Made by a program: the position numbers and the translations under genes. Below, in pieces: positions 2,439-62,080 of a stretch of DNA of 64,000 bases. The notes beneath the pieces were generated by a model. The model searched no databases. It had not been told where the DNA came from and saw only the letters and a program-made list of their open reading frames with translations. The stretch's first letter is position 1; each line of letters begins with the position of its first letter. Origin of the DNA: an uncultured Victivallales bacterium (GTDB lineage Bacteria > Verrucomicrobiota > Kiritimatiellia > UBA8416 > CAYSRM01); the NCBI GenBank assembly GCA_964433435.1, contig CAYSRM010000001.1:1941-65940 (forward strand). The letters run 5' to 3'.

Positions 2439-3614
2439 ATGGATAAAGTAAAGAAAATTGTGTTACTGGGGAGCACCGGGTCAATCGGGGAGAACGTGCT
2501 TAGTGTTGTGCGCGCTCTTGAAGGGCGCATTGTTGTCAAGGCTTTGGCTGCCAACAGTAACTGGGAGCGCGTTCTTGAGCAGGCCCGGGAATTCGGGGTT
2601 GAAGAAGTAGGGTTGAGCGACCAGGAGAGCGCGCGGGCCTGTTTGCAAAGCGGGGACGGGTTTGTGGTGCGGAGCGGATCTGACGGTGTGGCTGAGCTGG
2701 CTGCGAGTGAGGATGTTGATCTTGTAGTTTGCGCGATAGTGGGCATTGCAAGTCTCAAGCCTGTGCTTGCCGCGTTGCAGGCTGGAACGGACGTGGCGTT
2801 ATCGTCGAAGGAGGCGTTGGTCACCGGCGGGCGGATAGTGAGGCGGGCGTGCATGGAAAGTGGAGCCAAGCTGTTGCCGGTTGATAGCGAGCACAGCGCG
2901 ATTTTTCAGTGTCTGCCTGGCAATGCAGGAGGTTTGGAAAGCGATACCATAAGCAAAGTTGTAAAGCGGTTGATTCTGACTGCTTCCGGCGGGCCGTTTG
3001 GGTCGGTGTCGGATGTGGATCTGGAAAAGGTTTCGATTGAACAGGTTTTGAAGCACCCGAATTGGGATATGGGAGACAAAGTTACTGTTGATTCCGCAAC
3101 GCTTATGAACAAGGGACTGGAAATCATGGAAGCCCAGTGGTTGTTCGACATGCCGTTATCCAGGATCAGTGTTGTGATTCACCCGGAGAGCATTGTTCAT
3201 TCGCTTGTGGAATTTGTGGACGGGAATATGCTGGCGCAATTGTGTCGGCCTGATATGCGTTATGCTATTCAGTATGCGCTTACATTTCCGGAACGCGTCA
3301 ATGCGGGGCTTCAGGGGCTTGATCTTGCGGATATAGGAAAACTGACTTTTACTGAGCCTGACAATGGAAGGTTTCCGTGTCTTGATCTTGCCAGGCGGGC
3401 CGCCGGGACTGGGGGGACGATGCCGACTGTTCTGAACGCCGCAAATGAAGTTGCAGTGGATAAATTTCTGGCTGGCCGGATCAGGTTTCCTGAGATATGG
3501 GAAATGGTGGAAAAAGTGATGGACAGTCACCAGCAGGTTGAAGAACCTGATCTTGACGGCATAATGGAAGCAGACGCGTGGGCGCGAAATTTTCTGAACA
3601 ATAAGGGGGTTTAA
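2439..3614 (+). CDS. dxr: 1-deoxy-D-xylulose 5-phosphate reductoisomerase
   Basis: N-terminal NADPH motif LGSTGSIGENVL and conserved Dxr core. uppS-cdsA-dxr-rseP synteny. Confidence 0.95.
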   Translation: MDKVKKIVLLGSTGSIGENVLSVVRALEGRIVVKALAANSNWERVLEQAREFGVEEVGLSDQESARACLQSGDGFVVRSGSDGVAELAASEDVDLVVCAIVGIASLKPVLAALQAGTDVALSSKEALVTGGRIVRRACMESGAKLLPVDSEHSAIFQCLPGNAGGLESDTISKVVKRLILTASGGPFGSVSDVDLEKVSIEQVLKHPNWDMGDKVTVDSATLMNKGLEIMEAQWLFDMPLSRISVVIHPESIVHSLVEFVDGNMLAQLCRPDMRYAIQYALTFPERVNAGLQGLDLADIGKLTFTEPDNGRFPCLDLARRAAGTGGTMPTVLNAANEVAVDKFLAGRIRFPEIWEMVEKVMDSHQQVEEPDLDGIMEADAWARNFLNNKGV

Positions 3615-3615
3615 A

Positions 3616-5268
3616 TTGGGAGTTATTCAAAGTATTTGGGATGTGCTTATTCTGGTGGTGCTTTTTAGCGCCACGATATTTGTGCATGAGTTTGGACATT
3701 TTCTGGTGGCTAGAAAGCTCGGGATGGTTGTGGACGTGTTTTCCATTGGGTTTGGCCCGGCTATCTGGAAGAAAAAGCACAAGGGAGTCACGTACAAGAT
3801 ATCCATGATTCCACTTGGTGGCTACGTAGCGTTACCCCAGCTTGACCCGGCTGCAATGTCGGGTGTGCAGGGAAAGAACAAGGGCGAGGGCCAGTCTGAG
3901 GGAGGAAACGAAGAGCAGGAGCGTGTGCTTCCTCCTGTTTCGCCCTGGAGCAAGATTCTGGTTTCTTTGGCTGGCTCCATGGGCAACATAGTTTTTGCGA
4001 TTATTTTCGCCTTGATTATATATGCGAATCCCGGTTCGGTCACTGGCTCTGAAACTACCCGCATAGGCAGTGTGGCCACAAACAGCCTGGCTTATCAGAA
4101 GGGTATTCGACCGGGTGACCGGATCAACGCTGTGAATGGAACGGAAGTAAACAGCTGGTATCGTTTCCAGGAGGAGACAGTTCTTGGAGTCGGCAAAGAC
4201 GGTGAGGTGACGGTTACACTGGAATCTGGCGGTTCGGTTCGCGAAGTGCGGGTGCCTGTTGCAACCAATGAACTTGCTGCTGGCGTGATACCAGGGATTG
4301 AAACGGCGAGGCAATGCGCAGTGACTAATGTGGCCGGGGGCGGCAGTGCGGCTCGCGCCGGGCTTAGAGAAGGCGATGTTATAGAGGCTGTGGATGGGAA
4401 TGAGGTGGTAAGCTGCCAACATCTTCAGCATGTCACTGAAGGCAGAGATGGTGAAACTGCGCAGGTTACCGTGAGGAGAGGTGAGGAGGAATTAATTCTT
4501 CATCTTGAGTTGCCGATAGAAGGAACCGCTCCGAAGGGCAAGTGCCTGATAGGAGGAATAATCGGAGGTACATCCGCGGACAAGGCAGGATTGAAGGCCG
4601 GGGATGTAATCATTGAACTTGCCGGGGTGCCCATTGTCAACTGGCGACAGTTTATAGAGAAGGTGAACGAGCATAAAGGTGAGACGCTTCCGATAGTTGT
4701 GCTTCGCGGTGATGATCTGGTTGAGACGGAAGTGACTCCCGAATATGACGAGGAGCGGGAGCGTGCTTTGATCGGAATAGTACTGGGAGTCAGGCCTACC
4801 CTTCCCTGGATGAGATACAGGAGCCCTGCCAGGCAATTGACCAATGATGCATTGGCGATTGTACGGGTGTTGAGCGCCCTGGTTAATCCTTCGAGTTCCG
4901 GCAACGCCGCCAAAGCGATTGGCGGACCTCTTATGATCATCATGACTTTGTGGGCATCAATAAAAATAAGTGTGCTGAATGCTGTAGGGTTTCTCAGGTT
5001 TCTTAACATCAATCTGGCTGTATTGAATCTTCTGCCTATTCCTGTTCTTGACGGGGGGCACATCATGTTTTCTTTGTGGGAAGGGATCACGAAGAAGCGT
5101 ATTAACCCCAGATTCATCAATATACTGGTGAATATCTTTATGGTTCTGTTGCTTGGGCTTTTTCTGCTTATAACCTTCAGGGATATTGAGAGGGGTTTCA
5201 GGAGCGGCAAAGAGGTGAAAAAGGAAGAACGGCAGGCGGATGGGGAGAAGAGTGGGGATGGGGAGTGA
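3616..5268 (+). CDS. rseP: Regulated intramembrane metalloprotease RseP (site-2 protease, M50) with PDZ domains; TTG start
   Basis: HEFGHFLVAR HExxH motif in the first TM helix, PDZ-like segments, C-terminal LDGGH motif. Contains a Gly/Glu-rich low-complexity insertion. Confidence 0.88.
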   Translation: MGVIQSIWDVLILVVLFSATIFVHEFGHFLVARKLGMVVDVFSIGFGPAIWKKKHKGVTYKISMIPLGGYVALPQLDPAAMSGVQGKNKGEGQSEGGNEEQERVLPPVSPWSKILVSLAGSMGNIVFAIIFALIIYANPGSVTGSETTRIGSVATNSLAYQKGIRPGDRINAVNGTEVNSWYRFQEETVLGVGKDGEVTVTLESGGSVREVRVPVATNELAAGVIPGIETARQCAVTNVAGGGSAARAGLREGDVIEAVDGNEVVSCQHLQHVTEGRDGETAQVTVRRGEEELILHLELPIEGTAPKGKCLIGGIIGGTSADKAGLKAGDVIIELAGVPIVNWRQFIEKVNEHKGETLPIVVLRGDDLVETEVTPEYDEERERALIGIVLGVRPTLPWMRYRSPARQLTNDALAIVRVLSALVNPSSSGNAAKAIGGPLMIIMTLWASIKISVLNAVGFLRFLNINLAVLNLLPIPVLDGGHIMFSLWEGITKKRINPRFINILVNIFMVLLLGLFLLITFRDIERGFRSGKEVKKEERQADGEKSGDGE

Positions 5269-5296: not shown

Positions 5297-5378
5297 TATT
5301 GGTTGACAGGGGGAATGTTCAATGATCAAGGGGGAGAAGAAGAAAAGACTACGAAAGGCGCGAAAGGGCGCGAAATTG
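5297..5378. repeat. Mosaic intergenic repeat, copy 2 (rseP-ispG spacer). A-remnant plus D plus E modules
   Basis: ttattggttgacaggggGAATGTTCAATGATCAAGGGGGAGAAGAAGAAAAgaCTACGAAAGGCGCGAAAGGGCGCGAAA. Confidence 0.6.
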
Positions 5379-5408
5379 CGTTAATTTGATTCGATCGTTT
5401 TGCGATAG

Positions 5409-8487: not shown

Positions 8488-8736
8488 AAGAAGTTTTGGG
8501 TCAGCGGGTGTCTACAACGGGGGTACTGATATGCCGCGTGACGAGTATCAACCCGCATTTCTTACAAGGAACCTGTTGTAGAGTGTGTGATGCGGGCTAG
8601 GGCGTTGTTTCTTCCGGAGACTTTGGATCTGCCTGTGCATGATAACGTGCCGTTGCCAGCCGAACATTGGAAAAGCATGTGACTCGCCGCAAGCTGCGCA
8701 CACTCTAAACGAAGTCTTGTGAGAAATTCGGGTCAG

Positions 8737-20671: not shown

Positions 20672-20930
20672 TTGCTCGCTGCGCGAGGGGCATTGGTCAT
20701 TGGTCATTAGTCATTGGTGGGGGAGGGGGGAATATTCAATATCCAACCACGCCTTCGCTCGGGTAGCTTCGGCGGGCGCTGCCACGCCTTCGCTCAGATA
20801 GCTTCGGCGGGCGCAGCACGGAATGGTTAATGATGAAGGGTGGGAAAGAAGAAGATTGTAACCACAGAGAGCACAGAGAAGAGGAAGAAGAGATAGACTG
20901 CGAAAAGTGCGAAAGGGCGCGAAATTGGGG
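20672..20930. repeat. Mosaic intergenic repeat, copy 3 (hisB-hisA spacer). Order is A-B-C-C-D-…-E with a tandem C duplication
   Basis: A at 20688-20718, B at 20719-20746, C at 20747-20778, second C at 20781-20816, D at 20817-20856, E-like at 20898-20927. Confidence 0.7.
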
Positions 20931-20995
20931 GAGGTTGGGATGTTTGCAGGGAGCAGGCACGAGGCATGCTCTTACGGATGGGGAGGAGAGTTGAT

Positions 20996-25912: not shown

Positions 25913-26455
25913 AATTCTCTGTTCGCCGCCGCGGTGTATATCCCTGAAGAACCTGTGGTATTGCTGGGCAAGCGGTTCATCAAAGAAAAAGAGTCCGACG
26001 AGGATTGCTGAATTAAAGAGAAAAAGACGGATAAGTCGGTTGTGAATGAAGATTTTGATAATGCGTTTCCAAAAGCTGATGGTTATTATCCCGTTTTTTT
26101 TCCGAATCAGTTAATGCCCGGGTTCTGATTGTATTTTTTCATTTTTATGGGATGGTCTGTTGTTTTTTTCATAATTCATGCCACGGCATTGTAAGGACAA
26201 CTGTCTGACTTGGCAACACGAGAAAGAGGGGGGAATACGCATTATGACACCATGGCTTCAATAGAGTCGGCCAGGAATGGCCGACTTACTGGAGTAAGGC
26301 GGGTCATTCCTGCCTGTCCTTTTATGTGAGAATGGCCATAATGAGAATCGCTGGAGCGGAGGCGGAGGATTAGAATTGCTGTTTATATGGTGAAAGTTGT
26401 AGGGTTATGCGGTTAAGCGGAACACTCGAATTCTTAAGGGAGGAATGGATCAACT

Positions 26456-28915: not shown

Positions 28916-28927
28916 TTCCGGAGGAAT

Positions 28928-28980
28928 GCGGGTGTAGCTTAGTGGTAAAGCTTCCGCCTTCGTCCGGAGGCTACGGCGAG
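28928..28980 (+). pseudogene. 5' fragment of a tRNA-Gly-like gene. It has the acceptor 5' strand and D-arm but no T-arm or 3' acceptor strand
   Basis: The first 25 nt (gcgggtgtagcttagtggtaaagct) are identical to the intact tRNA-Gly 130 nt downstream. The following arm is degenerate and no ttcgattcc or cacccgc follows. Confidence 0.6.
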
Positions 28981-29057: not shown

Positions 29058-29131
29058 GCGGGTGTAGCTTAGTGGTAAAGCTCCAGCCTTCCAAGCTGGC
29101 TACGCGGGTTCGATTCCCGCCACCCGCTCCA
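29058..29131 (+). tRNA. tRNA-Gly (anticodon TCC), CCA encoded
   Basis: Manual fold: acceptor gcgggtg/cacccgc, D-arm gctt-agtggta-aagc, anticodon stem ccagc/gctgg with loop cttccaa, T-arm gcggg-ttcgatt-cccgc, discriminator t, cca. Confidence 0.9.
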
Positions 29132-45276: not shown

Positions 45277-45462
45277 GCCTGAAGCATATTGCACAATCCG
45301 GCGGGTTGTCAAGCAGGGTCTTCAGAGGTGATTTGTTATGGCTTGGTCCCCTGCCGTCCCACAAATTCTAAGGCATTGCGTAATTGGTGTGAAACCCTTA
45401 CTATTCAGGCAAATGGTAGTGTTAAAAATTGAATGAAAACGGCTGAGACGGGGAATGGGTGG

Positions 45463-45514
45463 ACGATGACGGGCGATCCCGACTCTCTTCGAGGTCGGGA
45501 TCGCCCGTCATCGT
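45463..45514. repeat. Near-perfect 50-bp palindrome (21-bp perfect arms plus inner ctc/gag)
   Basis: ACGATGACGGGCGATCCCGAC tctcttcgag GTCGGGATCGCCCGTCATCGT; read directly. Confidence 0.9.
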
Positions 45515-45641
45515 TAGCCGAAATAAACTGAAAAAAGGGGGAGAATCGGGTATCCGCTCTAACCACCGGCCAAATGGTCAGTTAGACAGATAAGAGTCCG
45601 GATTTCTTACCAGAACCAGGCAAATCTTGAGGAGAGACAGA

Positions 45642-47520: not shown

Positions 47521-47618
47521 GGTGAAACGGGCGTGAAAGGAATGTGGGACGTGGAACGCGGGAGCGTTGCAATCTACGGGAAGGGGGGGCAGCAGGTTGG
47601 AGAACAACCTGCTGTACT
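47521..47618. repeat. Mosaic intergenic repeat, copy 4 (rsmA-mutS spacer). Degenerate E plus the F palindrome
   Basis: …gaaacgggcgtgaaagg…ctacgggaaggggggg then CAGCAGGTTG-gagaa-CAACCTGCTG (47590-47614), 10/10 bp identical stem to 565-589. Confidence 0.55.
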
Positions 47619-51843: not shown

Positions 51844-52764
51844 CTAGACCTTTTCTTCAGCCTGCGCTGGTTCTTCCACAGCCGGTGAGGTTTCCACGGG
51901 TTGAGCTTCGGTGGTTTTCTTCTCTGTGGTTTCACTGCCCGGCTCGGATTGTTCTTCTGTTTGCTTAGGCTGTTGTTGTGAAGCCTTTGCTTTCTCTTTT
52001 TCTTCCTGCTCTTTTGCTTTTGCTTTTGCTTCCATTTCTGCTTCCGCGGCGATTCTAGCGTAATCCGCTGAAGCCTTTATCACTGTATCTGCAACGAGTC
52101 CGCTGATCAGACGGATAGCTCTGATAGCGTCATCGTTGCCAGGGATCGGATAGTCTACTGGAGTTGGATCGCAGTTGGTGTCGACTAGAGCAACTACAGG
52201 AATACCGAGGCGGTTGGCTTCGGCGACCGCAATGGATTCTTTGGCTATATCGACTACGAACATAATGCCGGGAAATTCGGTCATGCCGGCAATACCGGTA
52301 AGATTGCGATGTAGCTTATCAAGCTCGTTATGCAGCCTTGACGCCTCCTTTTTGCTTAGATTTTCCATTTCTCCGGACTGTTCCAGACGGTCCAGTTCCA
52401 GCATCCGGTTGACACTGTTTCGGATGGTTTTGTTGTTGGTAAGAGTTCCGCCGAGCCAACGGTGTGTTACGTAGTGTTGTCCGCATCTTTCCGCAGCCTC
52501 TTGAACAGCATCCTGGGCCTGCTTTTTGGTTCCGACAAAAAGCACGGAGCTTCCCTGGGAAACAACCTCATATACGAAGTTGAGCGCTTCCTTGAGGCAT
52601 GTCAGGCTTTTTGCCAGGTCGATGATGTGGATGCCGCTGCGTTTGTCGAAGATGAATTTCTTCATCTTCGGATTCCAGCGTTTTGTCTGGTGTCCGAAAT
52701 GCACACCGGCTTCGAGCAATGTCTTTACGTTTACTTCCTGTTCAGTTTCTTCTGCAACGGGCAT
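51844..52764 (-). CDS. rpsB: 30S ribosomal protein S2, with an approximately 90-aa acidic/Lys-rich C-terminal extension
   Basis: …[19 protein letters not shown]… signature. AAGGAGAG RBS upstream. Confidence 0.95.
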
Positions 52765-52952
52765 AACCCTCTCCTTTTATTAAGGCCGTTTTCCGAGTTA
52801 TTTTCGGAAAGAGCGGCAATCCGCTTTGACCTCCCCGGAGACAGGGAGGTACTCGCTTCCGTTCCTGACGGCGTGGCAGAATAGGTCTGTTGCGCGGCCG
52901 GAACCCGACAATGGGAAGTAATCTAGCAGATACGTGCGGCTATACAAGCGGA

Positions 52953-52982
52953 AAATGAATTTGTGATGAATTTATTCATTGT
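52953..52982. promoter_or_regulatory. AT-rich palindrome ATGAATTTATTCAT with a flanking direct repeat AATGAATTT. Fur-box-like candidate operator
   Basis: Read directly, about 190 nt upstream of rpsB (minus strand) within the large ORF-free region. Confidence 0.3.
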
Positions 52983-53172
52983 TTTGATCGTCGTCTGCGA
53001 AGATCGGGACAATGATGATGGACAATGTATCCAAAAGAGGGAAGGAAAGACTGTGCCGGCGCGTGATTTGTAGTTCTGGCTGGATTTAACCTGGCTGATT
53101 CATTTACATTAATGAACAAGACCCCATCCGAAAAGGGTCGGAGAGCAATAAGACCGGCAATGCCGGAGAAAA

Positions 53173-53340
53173 GCGCGCTCGCACACTTGCTTGTACGCGC
53201 GTATTAGCGAGCGGTTAAGTAAGTCGGGTAAGGGTATACGGTTAGGGGTGGCGGTTAAGAATTGCGTTTAAGTGTCTGAATCCGTACACTTAACCGCTCC
53301 TCTTACTGGGATACACTTACCCGACCTGCTTACCCGGTCT
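53173..53340. other. Candidate structured non-coding element (nested long inverted repeats) in an ORF-free region of about 680 bp
   Basis: No ORF of 60 aa or more in any frame across 52885-53443. Outer arms cggttaagtaagtcgggtaagg (53212-53233) and acttacccgacctgcttacccgg (53315-53337). Inner 9-bp perfect stem ggcggttaag / cttaaccgc (53250-53259 / 53290-53298). Confidence 0.45.
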
Positions 53341-53524
53341 GGGGTGTGCGAGTATGGATAAGAAAACATGCGGCATTGCAACGGTCTGTTTTGAGACACC
53401 TTTTCGGATAGGGACTAACTAAAGATAACACGGGTTATACAGATTGCATGGATGGGGAAGATGTGTCTTCAGTAAATCAGTTGTTTTCAGACAACAATTT
53501 CAGATTGAAAAAGAGGGTTTAATT

Positions 53525-55168
53525 ATGGTGGACAAATATGATTTATGCGCGTCGCACGAATGGAAGCGGTTAGAGCGCCATTATCAGGGTATTAAGAACT
53601 ATCATCTCAGGGATCTTTTTGCGAAGGATTCAGCAAGGGCGCAGAGCTTTTCTATAAAGGCGGCGGGCCTGTATCTTGATTATTCCAGGAATCGGGTTAC
53701 CGGCCAGACCATGCCGCTGCTGTACGAGCTGGCGGAGGCGGCGGGATTGCAGGCGGAAATAGAGCGAATGTTTGCTGGTGAGAAAATTAATTTCACAGAA
53801 GACAGGCCGGCGCTACATGTGGCTTTAAGAAACCGCGAAGGCAAGCCGGTGATGGTGGATGGCAGGGATGTGATGCCGGAAGTACACGCTGTGCTGGACA
53901 GGATGAAGGGTCTGAGCAGTCGGGTCCGGTTGGGGGACTGGAAGGGTTATACGGGCAGGAGGATTGTGAACGTTGTAAATATCGGCATAGGCGGTTCTGA
54001 TCTTGGTATCGCCATGGCCTGTGAAGCGCTTGAAGCTTACAGTGACCGTGAACTTACGGTTAGGTTTGTATCAAATGTTGACAGCGCTGATTTTGTGGAG
54101 AAAACGCGAGATCTTGAAGCGGACGAAACGCTTTTCGTGGTTTGCAGTAAATCTTTTACGACTCAGGAGACCATGACTAATGCCGGCACTGCAAAGGCAT
54201 GGCTGGTGGAACAGTTAGGGTCTGAGGAGAGCGTCAGCTCTCATTTTGTTGCTGTATCCAGCAACCCCGGGAAAGCAGTGGAATTCGGCATTGCTGAAGA
54301 AAACGTCTTTCGTATGTGGGACTGGGTCGGCGGAAGGTATTCATTATGTTCTGCGGTAGGGTTGTCTCTAATGATTGCTATTGGGCCGGAGAATTTTGTG
54401 AGGATGCTGGACGGTTTTCATCGGATGGACAGACATTTCCGGAATTCCGATTTTGAGTCGAACATACCAGTGATACTTGCGCTGCTGGGGATATGGTATA
54501 ATAACTTTTATGGTTGCCAGACTCATGCTGTCCTGCCTTATGAACAGTACCTTGCCAGGTTTCCTGCCCATTTGCAGCAGCTTGATATGGAAAGCAACGG
54601 CAAATCTGTGAACAAGAGTGGGGAGGCTGTTGGCTACCAGACCGGTCCAATCGTGTGGGGACAGCCAGGCACCAACGGTCAGCATGCCTTTTATCAGCTT
54701 ATCCACCAGGGTAAAAAGATTGTGCCTTTGGATTTTATTGGTTTCCTGGAATCCTGTGAACCGTGCGGGGACCATCACGATAAACTGATCGCCAACATGA
54801 TTGCGCAGACCGAGGCTCTTGCTTTCGGCAAGACCCGGGAGCAGGTCTGCCGGGACGGTGTGGAAGATGAACTGGTAATGCACAAAGTATTTGAGGGGAA
54901 CCGGCCTTCAAATGTAATACTGGCACAGAAGCTTACACCCGAGACGCTTGGCGCTCTGGTTGCTCTGTATGAGCACAAAGTCTTTGTACAGGGCGTAATC
55001 TGGCGTATCAATTCGTTCGACCAGTGGGGTGTTGAGCTTGGCAAAGTTCTCGCTACAAGGGTGCTCGAGGAAATCAAAGATAGTAACAAGCCTCTCTTGC
55101 ACGACCCATCGACCAACCGGCTTGTGAAGGCTTACCGTTCCGGACGGCTGCCGGGAGACAGTGCTTGA
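53525..55168 (+). CDS. pgi: Glucose-6-phosphate isomerase
   Basis: PGI signatures (…[10 protein letters not shown]…, …[11 protein letters not shown]…, …[12 protein letters not shown]…). Start at the ATG at 53525. Confidence 0.95.
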
Positions 55169-61939: not shown

Positions 61940-62080
61940 GATGATAAAATAGGAGGATGCTGGTTTCTGGATGCTGGTTTCTGGATGCTGGGGGCTCAGA
62001 TCTTCTGCGCAGAACTTACGAGTTCAGATTCTGATCGCAATCGACTTTCTGCGCAAAACCGATTACGATTACGAACTGCG
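61940..62080. repeat. Cluster of short direct repeats in the divergent sulfotransferase / vanZ-like intergenic region
   Basis: GATGCTGGTTTCTG x2 (+ partial), TTCTGCGCA(G/A)AAC x2, GATTACGA x2 read directly. Confidence 0.6.

Follow-up and report, generated by a model that had tools for sequence, protein, structure and literature searches.

The pgi–rpsB spacer and its genes

In the window, by which we mean the whole 64-kb stretch of DNA that was analysed, the divergent genes rpsB and pgi are separated by a spacer of 760 nt, counted from the ATG of rpsB (52764) to the ATG of pgi (53525). The features of the two genes are as follows.

51844–52764, minus strand: rpsB, with its ATG at 52764
52765–52944, minus strand: predicted rpsB promoter (TTGTAT-N17-TAGATT, ~52944–52916) and rpsB 5' leader of ~145 nt, from alignments
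53525–55168, plus strand: pgi, whose conserved protein begins at the ATG at 53525

The reading frame listed for pgi opens with a TTG at 53444, and the conserved Pgi protein corresponds to the ATG given above. The first-pass annotation had singled out the spacer as the longest stretch of the window free of ORFs, that is, with no ORF of 60 aa or more. The stretch 52885–53443 is the longest in the window, and its measured length is 559 nt, so that the original figure of “about 680 bp” was imprecise. The next-longest stretches are 26012–26455 (444 nt), which holds a fragment of the mosaic repeat family described below, and 45313–45626 (314 nt).

Three genomes make up the close clade: the source of the window, GCA_964475205.1 (contig L083 and the Logan contig L084), and GCA_964543205.1 (contigs L085/L100 and L086/L101). 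The closest named relatives by RpsB are Verrucomicrobia/Spartobacteria with ~65% identity, which places this uncultured lineage probably in the PVC group. A Pgi search of genome contigs reached no relative above 64% identity, its matches being spread over many phyla and uninformative for synteny. The contigs of five assemblies end within the pgi–rpsB spacer, and these breaks fit the presence of repeated or polymorphic DNA. In addition, both L083 (at ~3600–3680) and L084 carry ~64 extra nucleotides, CACTCACATACCCACATACAAGG..., as compared with AATCACGCGCCGGCA in the window (~53040–53060) and in L085; L084 begins within this extra segment. Structural variation has a hot spot in this spacer.

The region upstream of rpsB is strongly conserved in five genomes, the most distant of which has an RpsB identity of 73%. 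Its predicted leader contains stem-loops, e.g., TCTCCCTGTCTCCGGGGAGA, for which few compensatory changes are available, and it has no match in Rfam; it is a candidate for the S2 autoregulatory leader of this lineage. Just upstream of the rpsB promoter, within 52950–53015, two features are conserved in L083 and L085: the palindrome ATGAATTTATTCAT and, at 52976–52993/52998–53015, an imperfect inverted repeat of 18 nt. They may function as an operator or as a divergent-promoter element. Contig L082, from the relative whose RpsB is 73% identical, has tandem arrays of CTTTCTG... and GCAACGACTGAAACGG... upstream of rpsB (~40–300), and these reach to ~30 nt from the promoter.

The core hairpin and the 296-bp unit around it

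The spacer had been reported to contain a long imperfect hairpin with repeated motifs in its arms and with several possible pairings, and all three of these statements hold. The segment 53209–53339 folds at −64.1 kcal/mol, compared with −38.3 ± 3.5 kcal/mol for dinucleotide shuffles (z = −7.5; none of 200 shuffles was equally stable), and its two arms of 51 nt each are 75% complementary and include the perfect 12-nt pair GAGCGGTTAAGT/ACTTAACCGCTC. Exact copies of the motif GCGGTTAAG are found at 53211 and 53251 on the plus strand and at 53289 on the minus strand. When the motif is relaxed to the looser box GGKTARG, seven copies are packed into the 123 nt of 53213–53335: four in the left arm (53213, 53226, 53240, and 53253, at a spacing of 13–14 nt, with a degenerate fifth at 53266) and three complements in the right arm (53289, 53316, and 53329). 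Elsewhere in the 64-kb window, the box occurs 15 times, as expected by chance. Because the arms consist of boxes with a 13-nt period, alternative pairing registers exist; TRF did not call this degenerate periodicity.

This core hairpin is the centre of a larger, nested, rod-like inverted repeat of 296 nt (53120–53415), which the first-pass annotation had overlooked. Its parts are listed below; where no strand is given, none is assigned.

53114–53119: left copy of a 6-bp duplication, GAACAA in the window and GAACTA in a sister genome (L085/L100)
53120–53415: whole foldback element, GACCCC...GGGAC, non-coding, corresponding to an indel relative to L083
53120–53136, plus strand: left terminal inverted repeat, GACCCCATCCGAAAAGG, with the same terminus on contigs L098 and L099
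53157–53186: left halves of the outer stems, GCAATGCCG (53157–53165) and CTCGCACAC (53178–53186), pairing with 53371–53379 and 53344–53352
53209–53339: core hairpin, defined by its fold and its arrays of GGKTARG boxes
53245–53300: apex module, with a reverse-oriented copy elsewhere in a sister genome, at a non-syntenic locus (L101)
53399–53415, minus strand: right terminal inverted repeat, reading GTCCCTATCCGAAAAGG on the minus strand, with the same ends on L098 and L099
53416–53421: right copy of the 6-bp duplication, TAACTA, from the junction comparison

The outer arms pair at 53119–53136/53399–53416, 53157–53165/53371–53379, and 53178–53186/53344–53352. As RNA, the 296-nt unit folds at −148.5 kcal/mol on the plus strand (z = −9.3) and at −121.6 kcal/mol on the minus strand (z = −7.5), and as DNA it folds at −70.3 kcal/mol (z = −7.2). 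Its ends are inverted copies of GWCCCYATCCGAAAAGG; in other words, it is bounded by 17-nt terminal inverted repeats of the form G(A/T)CCC(C/T)ATCCGAAAAGG, and the two ends differ at two positions. The longest reading frame within the element has 47 aa, and a concatenated six-frame query against 5.8 billion protein sequences found no homologue. The right end lies 109 nt from the ATG of pgi.

Filled and empty sites in the sister genomes

In GCA_964475205.1, the RpsB protein is more than 90% identical to that of the window and the divergent arrangement of pgi and rpsB is the same, with a spacer of only 509 nt. What is missing from L083 is exactly 53120–53415 plus one copy of the 6-mer, and the alignment at the junction is ungapped. 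In the window, the junction reads ...ATTAAT GAACAA [GACCCC...GGGAC] TAACTA AAGATAAC, or, over a longer span, CATTTACATTAAT GAACAA [element] TAACTA AAGATAACACGG. The empty site in L083, which has a single copy of the 6-mer, reads ...ATTAAT TAACCA TAGATAAG, or, over a longer span, CATTTATATTAAT TAACCA TAGATAAGACGG. Conservation of the hairpin in relatives had been set beforehand as a test of the RNA reading, and in this relative, with the same pgi–rpsB arrangement, the whole structure is absent.

The other sister genome, GCA_964543205.1, has a filled left junction on L085/L100, GAACTA|GACCCC, and the next 54 nt are the same as in the window; L085 ends there, and the partner contig L086 begins 20 nt past the right end of the element. 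We infer that the stop of L085 54–55 nt into the element is what would be expected from a k = 55 de Bruijn assembly at a repeat boundary. The element is therefore present at one site in two genomes of the clade and absent from the third. A presence/absence polymorphism with a precise empty site, as seen in L083, is one of the marks by which MITEs are recognized.

Elements with the same ends in unrelated contigs

A scan of metagenomes with the pattern CATCCGAAAAGG-N(247–277)-CCTTTTCGGATR, which consists of two 12-nt cores of the terminal repeats and for which fewer than ~1 chance match was estimated, returned two loci.

L098 2–287: element of 286 nt; the contig starts at the left junction, and the visible right flank is TAGATA
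L099 2399–2688: element of 290 nt, with a perfect flanking duplication, TAGCTA/TAGCTA

The same paired-end pattern, run at three spacings, had no match in the viral collection, and chance matches are therefore rare. The lengths of these two elements, the only relatives found outside the clade (n = 2), were imposed by the search pattern. Agreement is also seen outside the pattern: G is the first base in six of six ends and is equally far from the core in each, and TA adjoins the element in every visible flank of the window, L098, and L099. The L099 element lies between convergent genes, and that of L098 upstream of an HTH gene. The two convergent genes beside the L099 element keep their stop codons, as these are provided by the two copies of TAGCTA.

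The interiors of the three elements have no detectable similarity, with global scores equal to those of shuffled sequences. Each of the three folds better than its shuffles (z = −4 to −9), and in all three, element-specific boxes are repeated on one arm and their complements on the other. The boxes are GGKTARG in the window, TAGTTyACGACrAAG in L098, and GAATATTCAATATCCAAC or the (G)AATATCCAA type in L099.

A target-site duplication, another mark of MITEs, flanks the element in the window (GAAC(A/T)A/TAACTA) and in L099 (TAGCTA/TAGCTA), with TAGATA as the right flank in L098. Under a 6-bp reading, 11 of 12 additional flank positions match (L099 and the window taken together), and only under this reading does the L083 empty site align without a gap; the 4-bp and 2-bp readings need a gap of 4 nt. 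A duplication of 6 bp (TANNTA) thus appears to fit best, whereas a 4-bp YTAR duplication (CTAG/CTAA, IS5-like) or a 2-bp TA duplication would fit the junctions less well statistically.

Copy number and a second locus

Neither the 64-kb window nor the fetched loci, ~0.9 Mb in total, contain a second full copy of the element. The apex module is the only part seen again elsewhere, at a second locus of the sister genome GCA_964543205.1. The copy occupies L101 8242–8256 and 8437–8485, in reverse orientation and 8.4 kb from pgi, and the contig ends inside it; its local alignment score against 53245–53300 of the window is 76, compared with a shuffle maximum of 30. It is split by a nested MITE of another family (175 nt, L101 8257–8431, terminal repeat CCYGCATATCTCACAC), which duplicated TTAA within a GGTTAAG box; one copy of this duplication lies with the MITE between the two parts. 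Within L101 8141–8485, the 106 nt in front of the apex copy bear no relation to the window element. The site in the window that corresponds to this segment (~61991) holds unrelated sequence. The continuation of the second locus was sought through the 90% protein clusters of RmuC and of a VanZ-like protein, which contained no other members.

No autonomous element or transposase with matching ends was found in the window, the fetched loci, plasmids, phages, or viral contigs. Plasmids and phages gave no blastn match to the element, nor did plasmids to the six terminal repeats, and a scan of viral contigs with the 17-mer gave only chance matches from which the similarity did not extend (one of them a coding repeat in L092). 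A literature search on the terminal-repeat and box sequences, and on MITEs in Verrucomicrobia, returned nothing relevant.

Other repeats in the window

Two further groups of repeats were recorded in the same stretch.

400–706, 5312–5389, 20700–20940, 26226–26259, and 47587–47618: mosaic intergenic repeat family, made of shuffled modules
8552–8732 and 61054–~61200: window copies of a second MITE family, with the terminal repeat CCCGCATATCTCACA
L100 7416–7566 and 8024–8057, L101 8257–8431, and L082 3086–3236: copies of the second MITE family at other loci

The modules of the mosaic family are GGGGAGGGGAGAATATTCAATATCCAAC; CCACGCCTTCGCTCGGGTAGCTTCGGCGGGCG; GGAATGTTCAATGATGAAGG...; CTACGAAAGGCGCGAAAGGGCGCGAAA; and the hairpin GGGCAGCAGGTTGG...CCTGCTGTACT. 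The first of these, GGGGAGGGGAGAATATTCAATATCCAAC, is the same as the internal box of the L099 element; L099 is a contig of 61% GC from another organism. The L099 box and the mosaic module GGGAGAATATTCAATATCCAACA agree at 21/23, 14/14, and 16/17 positions, with z up to 7.7.

Members of the second MITE family are ~175–185 bp long and are flanked by CTAG, CTAA, or TTAA; like the main element, they combine conserved ends with interiors that are in part unrelated to one another. Between genomes whose RpsB identity is only 73%, copies of one subfamily (window 61054, L082, and L100) are ~92% identical, which points to recent spread or to constraint.

A tandem GGATGCTGG(TT) microsatellite lies at 61955–61990, downstream of a sulfotransferase-like gene, and is expanded about threefold in a sister genome (L101 8030–8140). 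The 5' half of tRNA-Gly(tcc) is present twice: besides the intact gene at 29058–29131, a 35-nt copy with 94% identity lies 130 nt further upstream, at 28927–28961. Neither Rfam nor ARAGORN called a tRNA at this half-copy, which may be a remnant of rearrangement or integration.

Is there an RNA gene in the spacer?

The first-pass annotation had proposed “sRNA or structured regulatory DNA”. The stable DNA and RNA folds agree with structured DNA, and the sRNA or riboswitch-like part of the proposal is not sustained: no Rfam family matches the region, no promoter, tRNA, or tmRNA was found, and the structure is absent from a close relative. With Rfam 15 at gathering thresholds, cmscan reported only two tRNAs in the entire window, and a permissive scan (E ≤ 10) of 52600–53700 reported only generic miRNA-precursor models, the best with E = 0.17; the L098 and L099 elements gave nothing in Rfam. 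ARAGORN placed no tRNA or tmRNA in the region, and a consensus scan of the spacer did not find a promoter. The terminator-like matches in the spacer are only pieces of the outer stem of the element, with poor T tails.

The minimum-free-energy structures contain 13 G-U pairs on the plus strand and three on the minus strand, a bias that might be taken as a sign of a functional RNA. We discarded this argument, as the difference shrinks to 10 versus 8 in a structure-neutral alignment of the arms, and the region has a positive GC skew.

Two known classes of structure were also considered and set aside. A 6S-like RNA is contradicted by the lack of a model match and by a sister genome without the element. 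Integron attC sites carry the core sites RYYYAAC ... GTTRRRY in that order on a hairpin of 57–141 nt; here, GTTAAGT precedes ACTTAAC, i.e., the order is reversed, the structure has 296 nt, and there is no integrase nearby.

Origin of the element

We put at about three in four the probability that the hairpin forms the inner part of a MITE-like foldback element of 296 bp, a non-autonomous DNA transposon that lies in the pgi–rpsB spacer. Because the hairpin is the core of a foldback element that a sister genome lacks, it is likely to be an ordinary insertion of mobile DNA rather than a riboswitch or sRNA gene in its own right. The MITE-like family to which it belongs is undescribed.

The insertion would have taken place in the common ancestor of the window genome and one sister genome. 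A transposase encoded elsewhere would recognize the G(A/T)NNN(C/T)ATCCGAAAAGG ends and mobilize the element in trans, making cuts staggered by 6 bp at TANNTA-like target sites. The rod shape would then come from the inverted-repeat build and not from selection for a local regulatory RNA, and the short tandem boxes of the arms may be former subterminal binding sites.

The same rod could be viewed as a structured regulatory RNA, either a cis-leader of pgi with a promoter upstream of 53120 or an independent plus-strand sRNA. The fold is very stable, it is oriented like pgi and ends 109 nt upstream of its ATG, and its plus strand folds better than the minus strand by 27 kcal/mol, with the 13 versus 3 G-U pairs that could hint at selection at the RNA level. 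We nevertheless regard this as improbable. The G-U bias vanishes in the neutral arm alignment, no Rfam family, promoter, or convincing terminator accompanies the fold, L083 has the same gene arrangement without the element, and the same termini enclose unrelated interiors in the unrelated contexts of L098 and L099. It should be mentioned that MITEs are frequently co-transcribed.

It is about equally doubtful that the structure is a BIME/REP-like mosaic of hairpin modules spread by recombination or gene conversion, with the termini and the 6-mers being incidental. The second locus in the sister genome shares the apex module without the outer arms, the window does contain a modular mosaic repeat family, and one box of that family is the internal box of L099, all of which such a mosaic would accommodate; it accounts poorly for the entire 296-bp unit being an indel relative to L083 and for termini, size (as set by the search pattern), and flanking 6-mers common to three elements, with a duplication in L099 that is perfect at 6/6 positions. 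Least probable of all, and in our opinion very unlikely, is an ancestral local palindrome that was never mobile and that the L083 lineage lost through slippage between the 6-bp repeats. Long palindromes are prone to deletion, deletion between short direct repeats (microhomology) leaves one copy, as in L083, and the outgroup contigs that were fetched (73–79% RpsB identity) stop short of the site; even so, such a history leaves unexplained the 17-nt termini and 6-mers in two unrelated contigs, as well as the apex module at the second locus.

As a MITE-like insertion, the element may have an effect on the expression of pgi or rpsB. If transcribed, it would form a long duplex of the RNase III type 109 nt upstream of the pgi ATG, and it would also displace upstream AT-rich DNA from the promoter region of pgi. 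Most likely, the element is neutral at this locus, or at most a by-product modulator of pgi.

Relation to known elements

Among the hairpin-folding bacterial MITEs, Correia/NEMIS of Neisseria and ERIC/IRU of enterobacteria are ~100–155 bp long and duplicate TA; they fold into long hairpins if co-transcribed and can change the expression of neighbouring genes. Our element resembles them in being short, non-coding, and intergenic, with terminal inverted repeats, a target duplication, and strain-variable presence. It differs from them in having no sequence similarity, a length of 296 bp, a duplication that is apparently of 6 bp (TANNTA), and arms built of 13-nt tandem boxes.

BIMEs are spread by RAYT-type enzymes and are without terminal inverted repeats or such a target duplication. 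The likeness to BIME/REP lies in modular, short palindromic motifs in intergenic DNA and in an apex module that recurs without the outer arms, whereas no REP-like tetranucleotide heads were seen in the element.

The GA/GG-type ends, the CTAG/CTAA-like insertion site, and a size of 200–300 bp recall the IS5-derived MITEs and the Tn3-derived TIMEs. Duplications are 2–4 bp (or 8–9 bp) in the IS5 family and 5 bp in Tn3, as against the 6 bp that fits best here, and no parent IS was found; an assignment to either group is speculative. The long imperfect rod with internal loops is also reminiscent of 6S RNA (RF00013) and other rod-like bacterial RNAs, but the element is ~100 nt longer than 6S RNA, is without its central bubble, and matches no covariance model of this kind even at E ≤ 10.

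Implications

The most striking candidate for a structured RNA in the window is thus best read as mobile DNA, and annotation as a riboswitch or sRNA should be avoided. Two MITE-like families are now documented in a single window of an uncultured lineage, and the main one is unnamed. Such elements account for the contig breaks of several assemblies in this spacer, and they can alter the expression of neighbouring housekeeping genes. We also entertain, as a long shot, that the three elements belong to a widely distributed class of ~290-bp mobile hairpins, each keeping the 17-nt termini and the architecture with boxes of its own, and acting as mobile regulatory cassettes instead of inert MITEs. 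If this were true, hairpins of ~290 bp would spread sites for DNA- or RNA-binding proteins, or structured RNA modules, beside genes like pgi. The combination of conserved termini with unrelated, box-built interiors may inform how such elements arise.
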